From the NCBI GenBank assembly GCA_902771695.1, contig CACXXP010000001.1:144642-208641 (forward strand): DNA of 64,000 bases, in the 5' to 3' direction. Positions 43,228 to 63,848 of this stretch are shown piece after piece. How positions within the stretch are numbered: position 1 is the first letter of the stretch; each line of letters starts with the position of its first letter. The notes under the pieces were generated by a model, which worked only from the letters and a program-made list of their open reading frames with translations, did not search any database and had not been told where the DNA came from. Both the position numbers and the translations under genes were made by a program. The stretch is from an uncultured Pseudomonadota bacterium (GTDB lineage Bacteria; Pseudomonadota; Alphaproteobacteria; Rs-D84).

Positions 43228-44244
43228 ATGAAAGATTTGTTTGAACATTTGCTGATATTACGTTCACCAAAAATTGGACCGGTGGCGTATAATAATTTAT
43301 TGCAGAAATTTGATGGAAATGTACATGCGGTATTGGATGCGCTGGGGCCTGATGATAAATTGCGTGATGCGGTAATGCGTGAAATGGATGCGGCGGCAAA
43401 ATTAAATATACATTTTATTAGTGATGATGATCCCCAGTATCCAAACAGTTTGCGTGAAATAAAAAATCATCCACCAATTATAACCGCACGTGGAAATATA
43501 GAAACATTGAAATGCGAATCGGTTGCAATTGTTGGCACGCGTCATGCAACCGCCACAGGAATGGAATTTGTGGCCAATATCGCCAAAGAATTTGCGGCAC
43601 GCAAAATTGCGGTTGTATCTGGAATGGCAATCGGTACAGATTATGCGGCGCATATTGGTGCGTTGCGTGCAGACGGAAACAGCAATACAATTGCGGTGTT
43701 GGCGGGCGGTGTTGATTATATATGGCCAACTGAAAACGAATCATTATATTATGATATATTGGAACGTGGTGTTGTGGTCAGTGATATGCCGGTTGGCTTT
43801 GTGCCCAAGGGAACAAATTTTGTACAACGTAATCGTATTATCGCCGGAATAGGTGAAAAATTAGTATTGTCCGAAGCAGATGCAAATTCAGGCAGTATGA
43901 AAACGGCCGGTTTTGCGATGGAATATGGACGGCAAATATATGCAATTCCGTCGCATCCTGCGGATTCACGCGCGTTTGGCCCTAATTCACTGATTCGGTC
44001 TGGGGCGGCAATTTTGTGTCAAGGTCCCCAGGACTTCTTTGATGATGACAAAATCGGCGCCACGGGGGTAAAAAAATCAGAATCTGAAAATTCTATTTTG
44101 GACATGATAGGAACAGTTCCATTATCAGAATCTGTATTGGCAGATGTTGTCGGAAAAAATATTGCGGAAATTAAACGCGAATTAGTTGTGTTAGAATTGC
44201 AGGGTTTAATCAGAAAATGTGATTCTGGATATGTCCGTGCATAA
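43228..44244 (+). CDS. dprA: DNA-processing protein DprA
   Basis: YPNSLREI..PP, VAIVGTR, VSGMAIGTD..AH, F.QRNRIIAG, EA..NSGS. Confidence 0.94.
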   Translation: MKDLFEHLLILRSPKIGPVAYNNLLQKFDGNVHAVLDALGPDDKLRDAVMREMDAAAKLNIHFISDDDPQYPNSLREIKNHPPIITARGNIETLKCESVAIVGTRHATATGMEFVANIAKEFAARKIAVVSGMAIGTDYAAHIGALRADGNSNTIAVLAGGVDYIWPTENESLYYDILERGVVVSDMPVGFVPKGTNFVQRNRIIAGIGEKLVLSEADANSGSMKTAGFAMEYGRQIYAIPSHPADSRAFGPNSLIRSGAAILCQGPQDFFDDDKIGATGVKKSESENSILDMIGTVPLSESVLADVVGKNIAEIKRELVVLELQGLIRKCDSGYVRA

Positions 44245-44580
44245 TTGAAAGTGTGTATATACAGTGTATATACATATGGCGGAAAACAGGGAAAAATCCG
44301 AATCGGCGTCAAAAAATAAATTTGAAAAAAATCATTAACATTTTGTTGCAAATGAAAATCAATTTTATAAATTGTTTTTCGTAATCAGATAGGTTTCAAG
44401 GTTCTGATTGGAAGGAAAGGTACTTTACAAAATAACAAGAGAGTTGAGAGTAGGGAACATAAAAGAATACTAAATCTTATGAGAATATTGGTTCGGTATG
44501 ATTTGGTATTTTTATGCAGGTGGCTTTTGCACACTTGCACCGGCAGGAAACTCTTTTGAAACCAAGGAAGGGGAAACGGC

Positions 44581-45861
44581 ATGCAGGCGACATTGATGAC
44601 AAAGCAGGTTATATCGGCGGACGCAATTAAAAACGAATTGTCCACCAGAATAGATACGGCCGGTTTTTCTGCTTGGATTTCGCCACTTGCGTTTGATGTT
44701 TCAGATAATTGTTTAATAATAAGTGCCCCAAATCAATTTACCGCCGATTTTGTTAACGCGACATATTCAGGTGTTTTGAACGATGTTGCAAGTAAATATG
44801 GTATGAATGTATGTGTACGTGTTGCATCAACAACGACTGTTATTCGCAAGACCGCAAATGATAACAATGCACAAACATATTCTGCGCCGGTTGCCGATTC
44901 CAAAGGAACCGGCGGTTTTGATTCTTTTATTGCATCCGAAGAAAATGCATTTGTATTATCGGCATGTAAAAAGATGGCGGCGGGAACTGCAAAATTTTCA
45001 CCGTTGTTTATTTATGGTCCGGCGGGTTGTGGCAAAACGATGTTGTTGAATTGTATAAACAATTCGTATGATGGTCGTGTTGTTATGATGTCTGGGGCGC
45101 AATTTGTTGCAGAATTTGCCCGTGCATTGCATGATAAAACAATATTTGCGTTCAAAGATTATTGCCGTAATTGTGATACATTTATCATGGACGATGTTCA
45201 GGTTTTGGCAGGCAAACGTGCGACATGTGATGAATTTGTTCAGTTGGTTATAGATTTGCGTGACGCAGGTAAAAATATTGTGTTGTCTGCAAGTGCGGCA
45301 CCAAGTAATTTATCTGGGTTTGATCACAGATTGCAATCATTATTGGCATCGGGATTGGTGGTTGATATCGTGGCCCCATCGCGTGCGGTTCGTCGTGCGT
45401 TGTTTGTGACGGCCGGTGTCAGTCAAAAAATCGCTGATTCGATTGCAGGGCGCGTTAGTTCTGATGGTCATGTGATATCTGGTATTGTGAATAAAATTCA
45501 TGCATACAGCGAATTGATGGGTGATACCATCACAGAAACCGTTGTTGAAAAATTATTGGCCGATACATTAAAGAAATCAAAATCACCGGCTGTGATGGTT
45601 CGTTCTATGTGTGAAAAATTGGGCGTTTCATATGATGCGGTTTGCGGAAATGGTCGTGCGCGTTCATTGGTTTTGGCACGTCAAATGATGATGGTTGTAT
45701 TAAAGAATGTGACGGATATGTCTTTGTGTGAAATTGGTTCATATGTTGGTGGTCGTGATCATGCAACAGTTATGTACGGCATAGACCGTATTGAAAAATT
45801 GCAAGAAACTGATTTGGTTATGTCTGCACAAATTGCTCAATTGATAGAGGAATATAAATAA
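44581..45861 (+). CDS. dnaA: Chromosomal replication initiator DnaA (divergent)
   Basis: FSAWISPL, APNQF, FDSFI...N, PLFIYGPAGCGKT, DDVQ, ARQMMM, IG..GGRDHATVMY. Confidence 0.9.
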   Translation: MQATLMTKQVISADAIKNELSTRIDTAGFSAWISPLAFDVSDNCLIISAPNQFTADFVNATYSGVLNDVASKYGMNVCVRVASTTTVIRKTANDNNAQTYSAPVADSKGTGGFDSFIASEENAFVLSACKKMAAGTAKFSPLFIYGPAGCGKTMLLNCINNSYDGRVVMMSGAQFVAEFARALHDKTIFAFKDYCRNCDTFIMDDVQVLAGKRATCDEFVQLVIDLRDAGKNIVLSASAAPSNLSGFDHRLQSLLASGLVVDIVAPSRAVRRALFVTAGVSQKIADSIAGRVSSDGHVISGIVNKIHAYSELMGDTITETVVEKLLADTLKKSKSPAVMVRSMCEKLGVSYDAVCGNGRARSLVLARQMMMVVLKNVTDMSLCEIGSYVGGRDHATVMYGIDRIEKLQETDLVMSAQIAQLIEEYK

Positions 45862-59798: not shown

Positions 59799-60176
59799 AT
59801 GAAAAAAATTTTGGCTTTTGTTTTTGCGGTTGTGGCATTGGCTGCGTGTTCTGGGTATGACTATTACAAGGGTGATGTCCGTTACAGACAGAAAGGTAAA
59901 GATTGTGTATATTATATTGAAGAATATGCACGTAATTATTCCGAAGAAATTCGTGGTATAGATGGCGACAATCGCATTGTTTACAAAAACACACGTTGTT
60001 CAGATTTGTTTGCACGTGACAATGGTGGTCGTATAGAACGTAATGATCGCAAGGTCTTGGTTCCAGCAATCACAGAAGAACCTGTTGTTTCTTCTTGCGC
60101 GAAATATTCATCCAGTTGCAGCAACGTTGAAATGGTTCCGGTGACACGTCGTTTCTATACAATTTCTGGCAAATAA
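59799..60176 (+). CDS. Hypothetical lipoprotein
   Basis: LAAC lipobox; AAGGA RBS. Confidence 0.75.
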   Translation: MKKILAFVFAVVALAACSGYDYYKGDVRYRQKGKDCVYYIEEYARNYSEEIRGIDGDNRIVYKNTRCSDLFARDNGGRIERNDRKVLVPAITEEPVVSSCAKYSSSCSNVEMVPVTRRFYTISGK

Positions 60177-60224: not shown

Positions 60225-60283
60225 ATTTTATTTGAAACAACACCAAAATTGTGATAAAATTAAACGGAAAAAGGAGAAATGAT

Positions 60284-60643
60284 ATGAAAAAGATTTCACA
60301 ATATTTAATGACTGCGATGGTCACGGTTACGATTTTTGCACAAAACGCTTTCGCGGCCAAGGGCGGCGATACCGGTGTATGTGCGTTAATAAGTCAACTT
60401 TCGCCAGTTATTAAAACATTACGTACGTTGGCGTTCTTGGGTGCCGCGTTTATCCTTATGGATTGGGCGTGGGGCTATATCAAGGCCGGTGACGTTAAAA
60501 AGGACGATTTGAAAGACAAGGGTATCGCATTGTTTGTTGGATTCTTTTTATTGTTCGGTGTCGGTATCGTGTTGTCGTTTGTGGCATCGACCGGTGGGCA
60601 AGAATACCTTGGGTGTGTCAAGAGTGCGTTTGCCGTTAAATAA
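60284..60643 (+). CDS. TrbC/VirB2-like pilin-type small membrane protein
   Basis: Signal peptide ending AFA, amphipathic helix, two hydrophobic helices separated by a charged loop. Confidence 0.55.
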   Translation: MKKISQYLMTAMVTVTIFAQNAFAAKGGDTGVCALISQLSPVIKTLRTLAFLGAAFILMDWAWGYIKAGDVKKDDLKDKGIALFVGFFLLFGVGIVLSFVASTGGQEYLGCVKSAFAVK

Positions 60644-60695: not shown

Positions 60696-61583
60696 TTAAT
60701 GTGCGAAACCGTATTTCTTGGCAAAGTCAATTTCACGTTTATTGCGTTCTTGGATAACTTTTTTAACTGGGGTTTTGGTAAAATTGTGCACTGGATCACT
60801 ATCGCGGGGGCCACTAAAATTTTTGCGTGCCGCGGCGGTATTTAATGTTACAATTCTTTTTAATGTGCCGTATCTTTGGTCGGATGAATCAAAATTTTCT
60901 ACGATTTTTCGTAACAAACACCCATATGCATACAGCAAATAACAGTTCATATAGTCGGCCAATGGGGTTTTTGGTGGAATCTCGTATTTGCCCCGTATTT
61001 CGTATGTTGATATTCCATCGTAAAGAATATCGTTTATTTCACGATGCAAACCGGAATAACGGTCCCCGCATTCATGTGGGGACGTGATGTTGGAATTAAA
61101 TCGTCTAAGGATTCCACCCAGGAACCCTTCGTACTTCGCAACATTTGCACGCCATTGGATTCGTGCGGTTTCGTCTGATGTTTGTTTTATGGTATTAAAT
61201 GATTCGTGTGGATTTATAAAATATTCCTGTTGAAATATTGTGTATGCATTAAAATATTTCATTAACGCCCAACCCATATATTGGGATATTTCGATATTGT
61301 CTTCTTCGTTGCGTATGATTGGCAAGTTGTTCGCGACAATCTGGTCCAATTTTTCTGGTTTACGTGAATATATCTGCTTTGGGGTACTGGTCCGTAAGAT
61401 TTGTTCAAATTTATCCTGGGATTTATAAACTTTTGTAGATATTTCTTTATAATTTACGGTTGATAAAACGCCATCAAGATACCAAATTTCAGAAATCGGT
61501 GTTGTGAATAATTCGTATTCATATATTGCATTGTAAGAGGCATTTAATTTTTCGAATATTTGTTTCAGATTTAATCTGGCCAT
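60696..61583 (-). CDS. Divergent DinD-like protein
   Basis: EISQYMGWAL, QQEYF, RIQWRANV..YE..LGG, LYDG.ST.EIR.KY.IP..TPLADYM and P....TPVKKV follow the DinD motif order, by eye. Confidence 0.55.
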   Translation of the reverse strand: MARLNLKQIFEKLNASYNAIYEYELFTTPISEIWYLDGVLSTVNYKEISTKVYKSQDKFEQILRTSTPKQIYSRKPEKLDQIVANNLPIIRNEEDNIEISQYMGWALMKYFNAYTIFQQEYFINPHESFNTIKQTSDETARIQWRANVAKYEGFLGGILRRFNSNITSPHECGDRYSGLHREINDILYDGISTYEIRGKYEIPPKTPLADYMNCYLLYAYGCLLRKIVENFDSSDQRYGTLKRIVTLNTAAARKNFSGPRDSDPVHNFTKTPVKKVIQERNKREIDFAKKYGFAH

Positions 61584-61604: not shown

Positions 61605-61835
61605 TTATTGATTGGTGCCTTCGTCGTTATGTGCAATTGAAAACAAAACAGATGATATCAGTGATTGGTATGGAACATGCTGGGTTGCCGCCAATTCTTT
61701 TAATCGGTCCAGCACTGGTCGTGGGATACGCATATTTATAACGGCGTCCGATTTATTAAATGCACGATAAGCCGCGTAATCTCGCAACAGGGATTCAATA
61801 TTCATCATGAAAAGTTGTTGCATAACGTTTGGCAT
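61605..61835 (-). CDS. CopG/BrnA-like ribbon-helix-helix DNA-binding protein
   Basis: K...INMRIPRPVLDRLKELAATQHVPYQSLISSVL; AGGA RBS. Confidence 0.75.
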   Translation of the reverse strand: MPNVMQQLFMMNIESLLRDYAAYRAFNKSDAVINMRIPRPVLDRLKELAATQHVPYQSLISSVLFSIAHNDEGTNQ

Positions 61836-61842
61836 TTTTTGT

Positions 61843-61970
61843 TCCTATACATTACTCTATACAACCGTCTTTACGAGGTACTATACCATTGTATTTACAT
61901 TTGTCAATACAAATGTCTAGACGCCTGTATTTACTATGGTATTTACGATTGTATTGCTGGTTGTATGGTA
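61843..61970. repeat. 12-bp-periodic array of GT-N4-AC boxes (candidate operator array)
   Basis: AC recurs exactly every 12 nt nine times (61849 to 61945); GT recurs in register at 61867 and 61891-61963. Confidence 0.8.
61880..61907 (-). promoter_or_regulatory. Promoter of the RHH/DinD-like pair, embedded in the repeat array
   Basis: Minus strand TTGACA (61907-61902), 16 nt, TATAGT (61885-61880) with extended -10 TGG. Confidence 0.6.
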
Positions 61971-62044
61971 TATTTTGGTTGGCCTTTTTATTGATTTGGA
62001 AATAAAAAATTGCGTTTTATTTTTAATAGTTTTTTTATCTGGGC

Positions 62045-62073
62045 TTGCACTTTTATAACCGATAATATAGAAT
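62045..62073 (+). promoter_or_regulatory. sigma70-like promoter of tolB
   Basis: TTGCAC, 17 nt, TAGAAT. Confidence 0.6.
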
Positions 62074-62109
62074 GCAAATCGTATAAGATAACTAAGGAAA
62101 GGAATTCTT

Positions 62110-63432
62110 ATGTTTAAACGAATATTAGTATTGGCATTTATGGCCGTTGGTTTGTTTACATTAAATGCACGTGCAGAATTAAAGGTTGATATTATTGCCG
62201 GCACGACCGATCCGATTTCGGTCGCCGTTCAAAAGATAGAAGTTGCGTCTGGGGCATCGACATCGGATGCGGCAACTATTCGCACGGTGGTCGAAGAAAA
62301 TCTGAAACGGACGGGCTTGTTTCATATTGTAAATCATAATGCCTTTCCAGAATATGTGAAATTGGACGAGATGCCGGACTTTAAATTGTGGACCGCCGTT
62401 AAAACCCAAGTTTTGGTTCAGGGTAAATTAACCAAAAAGGCGGATAGTAAATATCAATTAGATTTCTTTGTTTGGGATATTCCGGGTAAAGAACAGATAG
62501 AGGCCCAAAGTTTAGAGGCGTCAAAAAAATCTGTGCGTCGTTTGGGACATATTATGTCGGATGCCATTTACGAACGTTTAACGGGAGAGATCGGATATTT
62601 TGATACCCAAATTGTATTCATTGCTGAAACAGGTCCGGTTGATAAACGTGTTAAACGTATGGCGATTATGGACCAAGATGGTCATGGTTTGCGTTATTTG
62701 TCGGATGCCAAGACGTTTGTTATGTCGCCACATTTTTCGCCAAATATGCAATCTATTGTGTTCTTGTCATATTATAATGATGATCCGATGGTTTGGGTTC
62801 TGAATTTGGATACGGGTGAACAACGCAGATTGGGACAATTTGGGGGTATGAATTTTGCACCGCGTTTTTCGCCAGATGGAAATCGGGTCGCATTATCTTT
62901 GGTTAAAAACGGTATAACACATATATATGAATATAATATTGAAACAAATGCGTTCCGGCAATTGACGACGGGTGATTCTATTAACACCAGCCCATCTTAT
63001 TCGCCCGATGGCCGTAAAATAGCGTTTAATTCTGACCGCAGTGGCAGCCAGCAGATTCATATTTTGGACCTTGATACCGGAAAAATAAACCGTATCACAT
63101 ACGGGGCAGGGCGTTATGCCACACCGGCATGGTCGCCAGATGGACAATTTATTGCGTTTACCAAAATGGCGGATGATACGTTTTACGTTGGTATAATGAG
63201 TCCCGAAGGTAAAAATGAAAAGATTCTTGCCGGTGGGTGGTTTATGGAGGCACCGTCTTGGGCGCCTGGGTCACGTCGTTTGGTATATTATGAAACAGAA
63301 CGCGCGAGTGATGATATTGAACGCATGAGTCATATTCGCAGCGTGGATATAACCGGACAAAACTTGTACGATATTGAATTGCCAGACAACGTAAATGGTG
63401 TTGAACCAACATGGTCGCCAAGGTTGCCGTAA
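62110..63432 (+). CDS. tolB: Tol-Pal system beta-propeller protein TolB
   Basis: H..SDAIYERLTGE.GYFDTQIVF, IMDQDG, PD40 repeats (PRFSPDG, PSYSPDG, PAWSPDG), PTWSP. Confidence 0.95.
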   Translation: MFKRILVLAFMAVGLFTLNARAELKVDIIAGTTDPISVAVQKIEVASGASTSDAATIRTVVEENLKRTGLFHIVNHNAFPEYVKLDEMPDFKLWTAVKTQVLVQGKLTKKADSKYQLDFFVWDIPGKEQIEAQSLEASKKSVRRLGHIMSDAIYERLTGEIGYFDTQIVFIAETGPVDKRVKRMAIMDQDGHGLRYLSDAKTFVMSPHFSPNMQSIVFLSYYNDDPMVWVLNLDTGEQRRLGQFGGMNFAPRFSPDGNRVALSLVKNGITHIYEYNIETNAFRQLTTGDSINTSPSYSPDGRKIAFNSDRSGSQQIHILDLDTGKINRITYGAGRYATPAWSPDGQFIAFTKMADDTFYVGIMSPEGKNEKILAGGWFMEAPSWAPGSRRLVYYETERASDDIERMSHIRSVDITGQNLYDIELPDNVNGVEPTWSPRLP

Positions 63433-63848
63433 TGAAAAATCTGTGTGTTGGATTTGGTGCTTTATTTTGGGTGTCTTGTGCGGTGGCGGTGCCGGCGCGC
63501 GTTGGGCATATTATTGATGGTGATACTTTTTCAGGCATTGTTAGATTGGACGATGATGTAGAAGTTTCTGTGCGCGTTCGTTTGCGTAATGTTGATACCC
63601 CAGAAATAAATGGCGATTGCGAATACGAACGTACACGTGCGGTTCAGGCCCGTAATCGTTTGGGCGAAATGATACCTGTCGGTACCACCGTTGAATTAAC
63701 CAATATCAAAGATGATAAATACCTTGGGCGTATAGATGCCAATGTATTGGATGAACGTGGTCGTGATGTTGGAAATCGTCTGGTCCAAGAAGGTTTTGGA
63801 CGAAAATATAATGGTGGCCGTCGTGACAAATGGTGCAATATAAAATAA
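63432..63848 (+). CDS. Thermonuclease (SNase) family protein
   Basis: IIDGDT, VRLRNVDTPE, DKYLGRIDA, LVQEGFGR; N-terminal signal. Confidence 0.9.
   Translation: MKNLCVGFGALFWVSCAVAVPARVGHIIDGDTFSGIVRLDDDVEVSVRVRLRNVDTPEINGDCEYERTRAVQARNRLGEMIPVGTTVELTNIKDDKYLGRIDANVLDERGRDVGNRLVQEGFGRKYNGGRRDKWCNIK

Follow-up and report, generated by a model that had tools for sequence, protein, structure and literature searches.

What reads a run of eleven short boxes, set 12 nt apart over the promoter of one small gene? The question arises from a 64,000-nt stretch of DNA (hereafter the window, meaning that whole stretch), in which a gene on the minus strand (61605-61835) encodes a 76-aa protein with an N-terminal helix and a ribbon-helix-helix (RHH) domain of the CopG_antitoxin/BrnA type, the box binder that we propose here. 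The closest named relative of the locus is a Candidatus Enterousia MAG; PMC12306168 describes this genus as a gut-dwelling one, found in animals, with genomes of ~1 Mb and a place in the alphaproteobacterial order Rs-D84, which is uncultured.

Layout of the array and the promoter beneath it

The array occupies 61843-61974 upstream of the RHH gene (minus strand) and comprises 11 units of 12 nt, each an 8-nt GT-N4-AC box plus a 4-nt spacer, as seen in the sequence and by autocorrelation. The boxes start at 61843, 61855, 61867, 61879, 61891, 61903, 61915, 61927, 61939, 61951 and 61963; from 61843 to 61903 they read TCCTATAC, CTCTATAC, GTCTTTAC, TACTATAC, GTATTTAC and GTCAATAC, and from 61915 to 61963 GTCTAGAC, GTATTTAC, GTATTTAC, GTATTGCT and GTATGGTA, with spacers that vary in sequence. 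The centre can be read directly as an inverted repeat, ACATTTGT-CAAT-ACAAATGT (61897-61916), in which the -35 box is framed by A/T spacers complementary to each other and by the inner half of the box on either side; the flanking A..T spacers are kept across loci, and we propose this repeat as the site of nucleation. Away from this centre the boxes decay, the two leftmost lacking GT and the two rightmost lacking AC. An initial annotation of this DNA had described about 11 boxes in strict 12-nt phase, a central inverted repeat over the -35 and a symmetric outward decay, and all three descriptions proved accurate, including the starts and sequences of the boxes.

To quantify the periodicity, we used 1000 dinucleotide-preserving shuffles as the null. 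The autocorrelation of 61843-61974 at lag 12 is 0.583 versus 0.286 in the shuffles (z=7.2), none of the 1000 shuffles matched the observed value at any lag between 1 and 40, lag 12 included, and lags 24 and 36 each gave z>5. The wider segment 61836-62040, where the initial annotation had anticipated the same period, gave z=5.8 at lag 12 against shuffles. Tandem Repeats Finder called only the best-kept 2.4 units (61927-61955), showing that the array is degenerate. Pooling 319 units yields G T A W W K A C as the consensus of the box and A-A-Y-Y as that of the spacer after it. The profile has a palindromy of 0.88 about the box centre and a lower one, 0.72, about the spacer centre, as would suit a dimer with two-fold symmetry.

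Within the 969-kb genome the array stands alone, as a scan for further arrays confirmed: runs of three GT-N4-AC boxes at 12-nt spacing gave 3 overlapping matches, all in the array, versus 0.0 in shuffled sequence, and no other run of at least three boxes at 12 nt was found. Two-box pairs occurred 13 times genome-wide (4 within the array) versus 10.6 in shuffles, which is the chance level, and no multi-box site turned up in this genome beyond the array and a site near dnaA described below. A sliding lag-12 scan of the genome returned four periodic regions, the array among them. The other three stretches with a 12-nt period (C1:139341-139495, C5:68023-68155 and C8:20749-20931) are all purine-rich and of GAA type, and are probably acidic coding repeats.

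The array lies over the promoter and the ribosome-binding site (RBS) of the RHH gene, as the initial annotation had also stated. A scan of the minus strand with the sigma-70 consensus returned a single promoter, TTGACA-N16-TGnTATAGT, which matches 11 of 12 positions and carries a TG extension. Its -35 hexamer TTGACA (61902-61907, minus strand) sits in the central box 61903-61910, which reads GTATTGAC on the minus strand, and its extended -10 element, TG-n-TATAGT (61880-61888, minus strand), places the TATAGT hexamer (61885-61880) within box 61879-61886. Transcription is predicted to start near 61873. The last box before the gene (61843-61850), which reads GTATAGGA on the minus strand and has the locus consensus GTATAGGAG, carries the RBS AGGA (61843-61846) 10 nt ahead of the ATG. 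Read along the gene, five boxes lie 5' of the -35, one with the -35, one in the promoter spacer and one with the -10, and the remaining three fall in a predicted 5'UTR of ~38 nt, the final one holding the RBS. Four RNA-labelled runs, as low-depth contigs in which DNA carry-over is possible, cover parts of the RHH gene and of the 295-aa gene downstream of it as well as part of the array. Two RNA-run records match only the conserved core 61880-61914 and then diverge, and these probably derive from relatives.

Conservation of the phased array across the family

We stacked the 29 loci of the genus that have enough upstream sequence, ungapped and anchored on the -35 box. At all 11 positions (-60 to +60), the GT columns (phase 0-1) and the AC columns (phase 6-7) reach 1-2 bits, the spacer columns 0.2-1 bit, and the intergenic DNA past -72 0.0-0.9 bit. 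From these alignments, the difference between the phased columns and the remaining spacer region is hard to explain without selection on the phase. The central box 61903-61910 is invariant in 29/29 loci and TATAGT is invariant across the stack; part of the conservation at the -35, -10 and RBS boxes will be due to promoter and RBS function alone. The decay of the distal boxes is polar in these 29 loci as well, upstream boxes keeping AC (GCCnnCAC) and downstream boxes keeping GT (GTATTGnn), and the half retained in each distal box is the half toward the centre.

The initial annotation had pointed to homologues of the RHH gene as the place to look for the same array, and a phased array is indeed present upstream of RHH in 64 of 72 distinct loci. 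In these 64 regions the lag-12 autocorrelation is at least 0.45, against a maximum of 0.42 in 223 control segments, and at least 12 half-sites fall in one phase in 62 of the 72 regions, against a maximum of 10 in the controls, the compared loci being kin, so that such counts overstate their independence. Judged by these alignments, the phase appears to be under selection throughout the family, and changes in array length are quantised in units of ~12 nt: the array of locus L019 is shorter by exactly one unit, and the distances from the -35 box to the ATG fall into classes of ~64, 76, 89 and 97-101 nt, with 43/65 loci congruent to 4 mod 12.

Some genera carry other forms. In g4 and g13, the near-perfect palindromes GTATAGAC, GTATATAC and GTATTGAC occur in blocks of 2+2 or 2+3 with the 12 nt kept, and in g5 there are three or four such boxes. 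In g14, no GT-N4-AC boxes were found within 420 nt 5' of the RHH gene and none 5' of dnaA; there the RHH gene sits behind another gene, and the beta-strand of its product is unchanged. One g14 locus (L066) has a different inverted repeat, on GAGAATAAGAGAAT, ~130 nt 5' of the RHH gene and between it and a tRNA gene.

The RHH protein and the genes around it

The RHH protein matches PF12441 over residues 25-64 (E 5.4e-8, 33.9 bits versus a cut-off of 28), and the precomputed Pfam assignment of the listed RHH relatives is PF12441 in 120/120. Against the NCBIfam BrnA model NF047399 it scores 21.2 bits, below the cut-off of 60, and the BrnT toxin domain (PF04365) has no match in this 93% complete genome. 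An AF2 model of the monomer (pLDDT 67) has helices at residues 4-26, 39-52 and 56-70 and an extended segment at 27-38 without an assigned strand, which is what a monomer should show. A profile of the RHH family found nothing below E 0.03 in the PDB; a weak alignment with Arc (E 0.68) sets Asn34 and Arg36 opposite the base-contacting residues of Arc.

Public records name the relatives of this protein 'CopG family antitoxin', 'BrnA antitoxin family protein' or hypothetical, and its distribution tells against such labels. A profile search found the gene as a single copy in 100 of 101 family genomes and in 18/18 genera, the sole miss being a genome that is 54% complete. A second sample had it in 121/121 family genomes and, in the other five families of the order, in 1/29, where the match is partial. 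Identity to the window RHH is 67-88% in 31 relatives, with no variation among the 32 sequences in the first 30 residues or in the strand segment VINMRI. A tblastn search with the RHH protein gave no match in plasmid and phage collections. On this comparative evidence the RHH gene is a single-copy core gene of the family, conserved family-wide as a core regulator would be, and the picture is unfit for an antitoxin. The core status, the lack of plasmid or phage matches and the lack of BrnT together imply that it is not a mobile antitoxin; the initial annotation had seen here a candidate for an undescribed system, and a toxin-antitoxin-like or mobile one was not sustained. In the literature on Enterousia, 12-bp-repeat RHH proteins, BrnA promoters and DinD/Bro-N/RHH combinations, supplements and subscription journals being outside the scope of the search, the array, the protein and the site near dnaA are all without a description.

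Downstream of the RHH gene, and probably in the same operon, lies an accessory gene of 295 aa (60696-61583, minus strand). The gap between the two is 21 nt and includes a separate RBS, and no terminator-like site was found between them. Pfam, NCBIfam and PHROGs gave no match for its product, NF008573 and Bro-N giving none at E<=1, and PADLOC gave a weak match to the candidate PDC-S13 (2.3e-5). A structural model (pLDDT 89, pTM 0.86) had no usable match in a PDB fold search (best E 0.33). A profile of 36 partner homologues reaches 715 cluster representatives at E<=0.001. We scanned ten of the more distant matches: six score on NF008573, five of them with 261-357 bits (cut-off 242), one further protein matches NF008573 weakly (E 9e-7), and five of the ten carry Bro-N, the profile E values for these NF008573/Bro-N proteins being ~1e-14 to 1e-16 over nearly the full length. 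The label 'DinD-like' that the initial annotation had given this gene therefore holds by remote homology only.

In all 30 loci retrieved with the partner protein, the RHH gene lies directly upstream of the partner gene, and the two differ greatly in rate. The 295-aa protein has 18-24% identity to its counterparts at 29 divergent loci of the genus (L004-L032) and 45-78% to a few close homologues; over the same loci the RHH protein keeps 67-88%, so the DinD-like gene evolves much faster. Of the 58 genomes of the genus, 39 have it and 19 do not, and one genome (G067) has only a 58-residue C-terminal remnant directly behind the RHH gene. In other genera a DinD-like gene adjoins the RHH gene in g9 only, and the genes downstream of RHH are otherwise unrelated ones that differ between genera. 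The array is kept in genomes without the DinD-like gene (L034, L035, L054 and L056), more weakly in L038 (lag-12 0.41). Since the array persists without it, the array is not there on account of the DinD-like gene, which, from these comparisons, is best described as a fast-evolving accessory passenger of the RHH promoter.

On the other side of the array, tolB (62110-63432) is divergent from the RHH gene. A putative tolB promoter, TTGCAC-N17-TAGAAT (62047-62075, plus strand), was read by eye in a block conserved in L001 and L002. The initial annotation had considered that the array may also affect this promoter; its putative -35 starts 77 bp past the last array box, and the divergent neighbor of the RHH locus changes by genus, so we did not retain the suggestion. 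Just after tolB and overlapping its end is a gene for a secreted staphylococcal-nuclease-like protein (63411-63848, plus strand); a similar protein is encoded by the gene downstream of RHH in one g6 locus (L068). Beyond the DinD-like gene, a 130-aa membrane protein (60251-60643, plus strand) has a weak TrbC/VirB2-pilin match (E 0.0066, below cut-off) and occurs at the same position in L001 and L002, beside a small lipoprotein (59799-60176).

A candidate operator, competing readings and known systems

We favor, with moderate confidence, the reading that RHH dimers coat the array cooperatively and that it is the operator through which the adjacent RHH gene represses itself. A symmetric dimer would read each palindromic GT-N4-AC box through its beta-ribbon, with the invariant Asn34 and Arg36 placed where the DNA would be faced. 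Binding would nucleate on the invariant central box GTATTGAC, which holds the -35 and has complementary A/T spacers on either side, and would spread cooperatively both ways over ever weaker boxes, through five boxes upstream and, downstream, through the spacer box, the -10 box and the three boxes of the 5'UTR. The resulting coat of ~132 bp would exclude RNA polymerase, giving steep negative autoregulation of RHH, and the DinD-like gene would be co-repressed in the genomes that carry it. The initial annotation had judged the site far longer than usual antitoxin operators and had suggested a cooperative RHH coat, and this still seems the most economical reading of the sequence.

The invariance of the strand VINMRI alongside the invariant core box counts for RHH as the binder, and each box would take one dimer. 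Against the operator reading, the RHH protein of g14 has the same beta-strand without boxes, implying that the protein can exist without the array. A unit of 12 bp would put neighboring dimers ~50 degrees off helical phase, so that the coat would have to spiral round the DNA or underwind it, and we know of no citable solved RHH complex with 12-bp spacing. The stoichiometry may also be different, with one dimer per 6-bp half-site as in RelB. If the mechanism is right, the graded decay of the boxes from the centre outward would offer a clean natural model for nucleation and spreading by a small repressor. The RHH gene itself is kept across a family whose genomes are 0.5-1.1 Mb and retain few regulators.

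A core gene that solely represses itself makes little sense, and the operator reading is therefore probably incomplete. The genome-wide box scan also turned up a second site, GTATATAC-N3-GTATATAC (44255-44273, not assigned to a strand), with two perfect boxes at 11-nt spacing between dprA (43228-44244) and dnaA (44581-45861); 11 nt separate it from the stop codon of dprA and 308 nt from the start of dnaA. A pair of boxes at exactly 11 nt, a few bases after the dprA stop, occurs in 28 of 30 dnaA loci of the family, where the boxes are GTATATAC, GTCTATAC, GTCAATAC or GTATAGAC; for the other two loci, less than 120 nt of upstream sequence was examined. A further 20 dnaA loci have the pair in 8 (g2, g6, g7, g8, g9 and g16), and one g10 locus has it at 13-nt spacing. 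The genera in which the pair was seen (g1, 2, 3, 6, 7, 8, 9, 10, 11, 16 and 17) are those with long arrays; 0/11 loci of g4, g5, g13 and g14 have it, and so do 0/5 sister-family genomes, which lack RHH. By chance, such a pair would be expected 0.0026 times per 830 nt. Directly 3' of the pair there is always a conserved element of ~50 nt that contains GAATC and TTGTCA. In the window this element (44274-44330) is non-coding and strongly conserved across genera, reads GCGCAGAAA..GGCAAAAAAACGAATCGTTGTCAAAAAATAAATG in most relatives and includes a GANTC-type site, GAATC. The dprA-dnaA spacer had no Rfam match and no convincing promoter. The distance between dnaA and the RHH gene is 17-22 kb in every genome compared, both being on the same contig.

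The conserved pair of the same boxes in array-bearing genera is a hint that RHH may have a small regulon reaching into the control of replication, and the two boxes upstream of dnaA are probably occupied by the same RHH protein too. One tentative reading, which we consider rather unlikely, would make the 11-box array both an autoregulatory operator and a high-capacity sink, with free RHH acting on the dprA-dnaA pair and so coupling the RHH level to dnaA expression. It would extend the operator explanation and not replace it. The recurrence of the pair in the dnaA loci far above chance speaks for such a reservoir, as does the core-gene status, which calls for a role beyond self-repression; the spacing of the pair (11 nt and not 12), its tie to the dprA end and the conserved 50-nt element rather than to a recognisable dnaA promoter, and a genome without other multi-box sites speak against it. 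A link to the dnaA site, if real, would be a first view of replication-control wiring in the uncultured order Rs-D84. A bolder form of the same idea, to which we give a smaller chance, is that a domesticated BrnA-type antitoxin has become a family-specific core regulator, with the 132-bp filament as operator and reservoir and free RHH acting at the dnaA leader. If true, this would be a lineage-specific circuit controlling replication initiation in gut alphaproteobacteria with reduced genomes.

We think it improbable that the boxes are read by another conserved factor for which the RHH gene is merely one target. The tie between RHH and the boxes is an inference, g14 keeps RHH without boxes and there is a second box site elsewhere in the genome, all of which such a factor would accommodate; yet the boxes and RHH are limited to the same family, self-regulation is the rule for RHH proteins, and a palindromic 8-bp box suits an RHH dimer.

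It is very improbable that the array is centromere-like or organises the chromosome, or that it serves to load the DinD-like partner; a centromere-like or loading role had been raised by the initial annotation. RHH centromeres such as parH/OF typically have 10-20 short repeats lying over a promoter (PMC3130281), and the proximity to dnaA in every genome would suit a chromosomal role. There is no adjacent or linked NTPase gene of the ParA/ParM/TubZ type, the neighbors being tolB, the DinD-like gene, a small membrane protein and a lipoprotein; the genes downstream vary by genus, and the genome's own ParB is on another contig (C13). A loading platform is hard to square with a partner that is missing from 19/58 genomes of the genus and from the RHH locus of most other genera when the array stays.

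We set aside a translated 4-amino-acid repeat, which the initial annotation had named as what would explain the period away, and replication-origin iterons: frames are open in the 29 loci more often than the ~1.4 expected from shuffles (25 loci for sense frame 2, and 17 and 19 for two antisense frames) because the boxes contain no stop codons, the entropy of the columns has structure modulo 12 but is level modulo 3 (0.64/0.73/0.67), stops break the antisense frames in 10-12/29 loci, and the open sense frame is distinct from that of RHH, with the promoter midway along it; as for an origin, dnaA is 17 kb away, but between ~10 kb and 215 kb the cumulative GC skew on C1 climbs steadily, passing both dnaA (189 kb) and the array (206 kb) without a turn.

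Returning to the operator reading, we did not find an operator with a period of 12 bp and a length of 11 units described for any RHH protein. Tandem short sub-sites coated by a small dimeric protein, often over its own promoter, are familiar from Omega of pSM19035 (7-bp heptads), MetJ (8-bp metboxes), ParR/parC of R1 (11-bp iterons) and tubC of pBtoxis. The last, the only 12-bp case known to us, has its 12-bp repeats bound by a winged-helix protein that works with the TubZ GTPase. To our knowledge, none of the binders of these four systems is a chromosomal core regulator. By sequence, the best family for the window RHH is BrnA/CopG_antitoxin (PF12441, NF047399), and BrnA has the same layout of an N-terminal helix and a C-terminal RHH domain. 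The window RHH differs in falling below the NF047399 cut-off, in a genome without BrnT and in being a single-copy core gene, whereas BrnA belongs to a patchy mobile pair. The likeness to DinD (NF008573) concerns the downstream gene, in that the profile of the partner family reaches DinD/Bro-N proteins and the 295-aa gene of the window sits behind the RHH promoter, presumably in place of a LexA box.

Cooperative RHH operators with several boxes over the protein's own promoter are an established kind, and two of them resemble the array. The relO operator of RelB is built of hexads, [A/T]TGT[A/C]A, whose orientation flips at each 6-bp step to give abutting 12-bp palindromic units (PMC2812701). 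The TGT/ACA core is common to both, and the window array can be parsed alike, as TTGTAT, TGACAA, ATGTAA and ATACAA in succession. Both overlap their own promoter, and relO is bound cooperatively; relO has two 12-bp units (four hexads) and the window array eleven, and RelB has an N-terminal RHH domain and needs RelE as co-repressor (PMC2812701), whereas the window protein has a C-terminal RHH domain and no toxin was found for it.

The other is ParG of plasmid TP228. Its OF operator has eight boxes, each bound by one dimer, cooperatively and over its own promoter (PMC3130281). ParG and the window protein are both RHH proteins with an N-terminal extension and a long array of short degenerate boxes, and the ParG arrays (8 boxes in OF and 12 in parH) have regular 4-bp spacers and lie over and upstream of the protein's own promoter (PMC3130281), as the window array does with its 4-nt spacers. 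The boxes themselves differ, ParG using ACTC tetramers with an 8-bp period and AT-rich spacers and the window array 8-bp palindromes with a 12-bp period; and ParG acts on a plasmid replicon and requires the ParF ATPase (PMC3130281), whereas the window RHH is a chromosomal core gene with no NTPase beside it.
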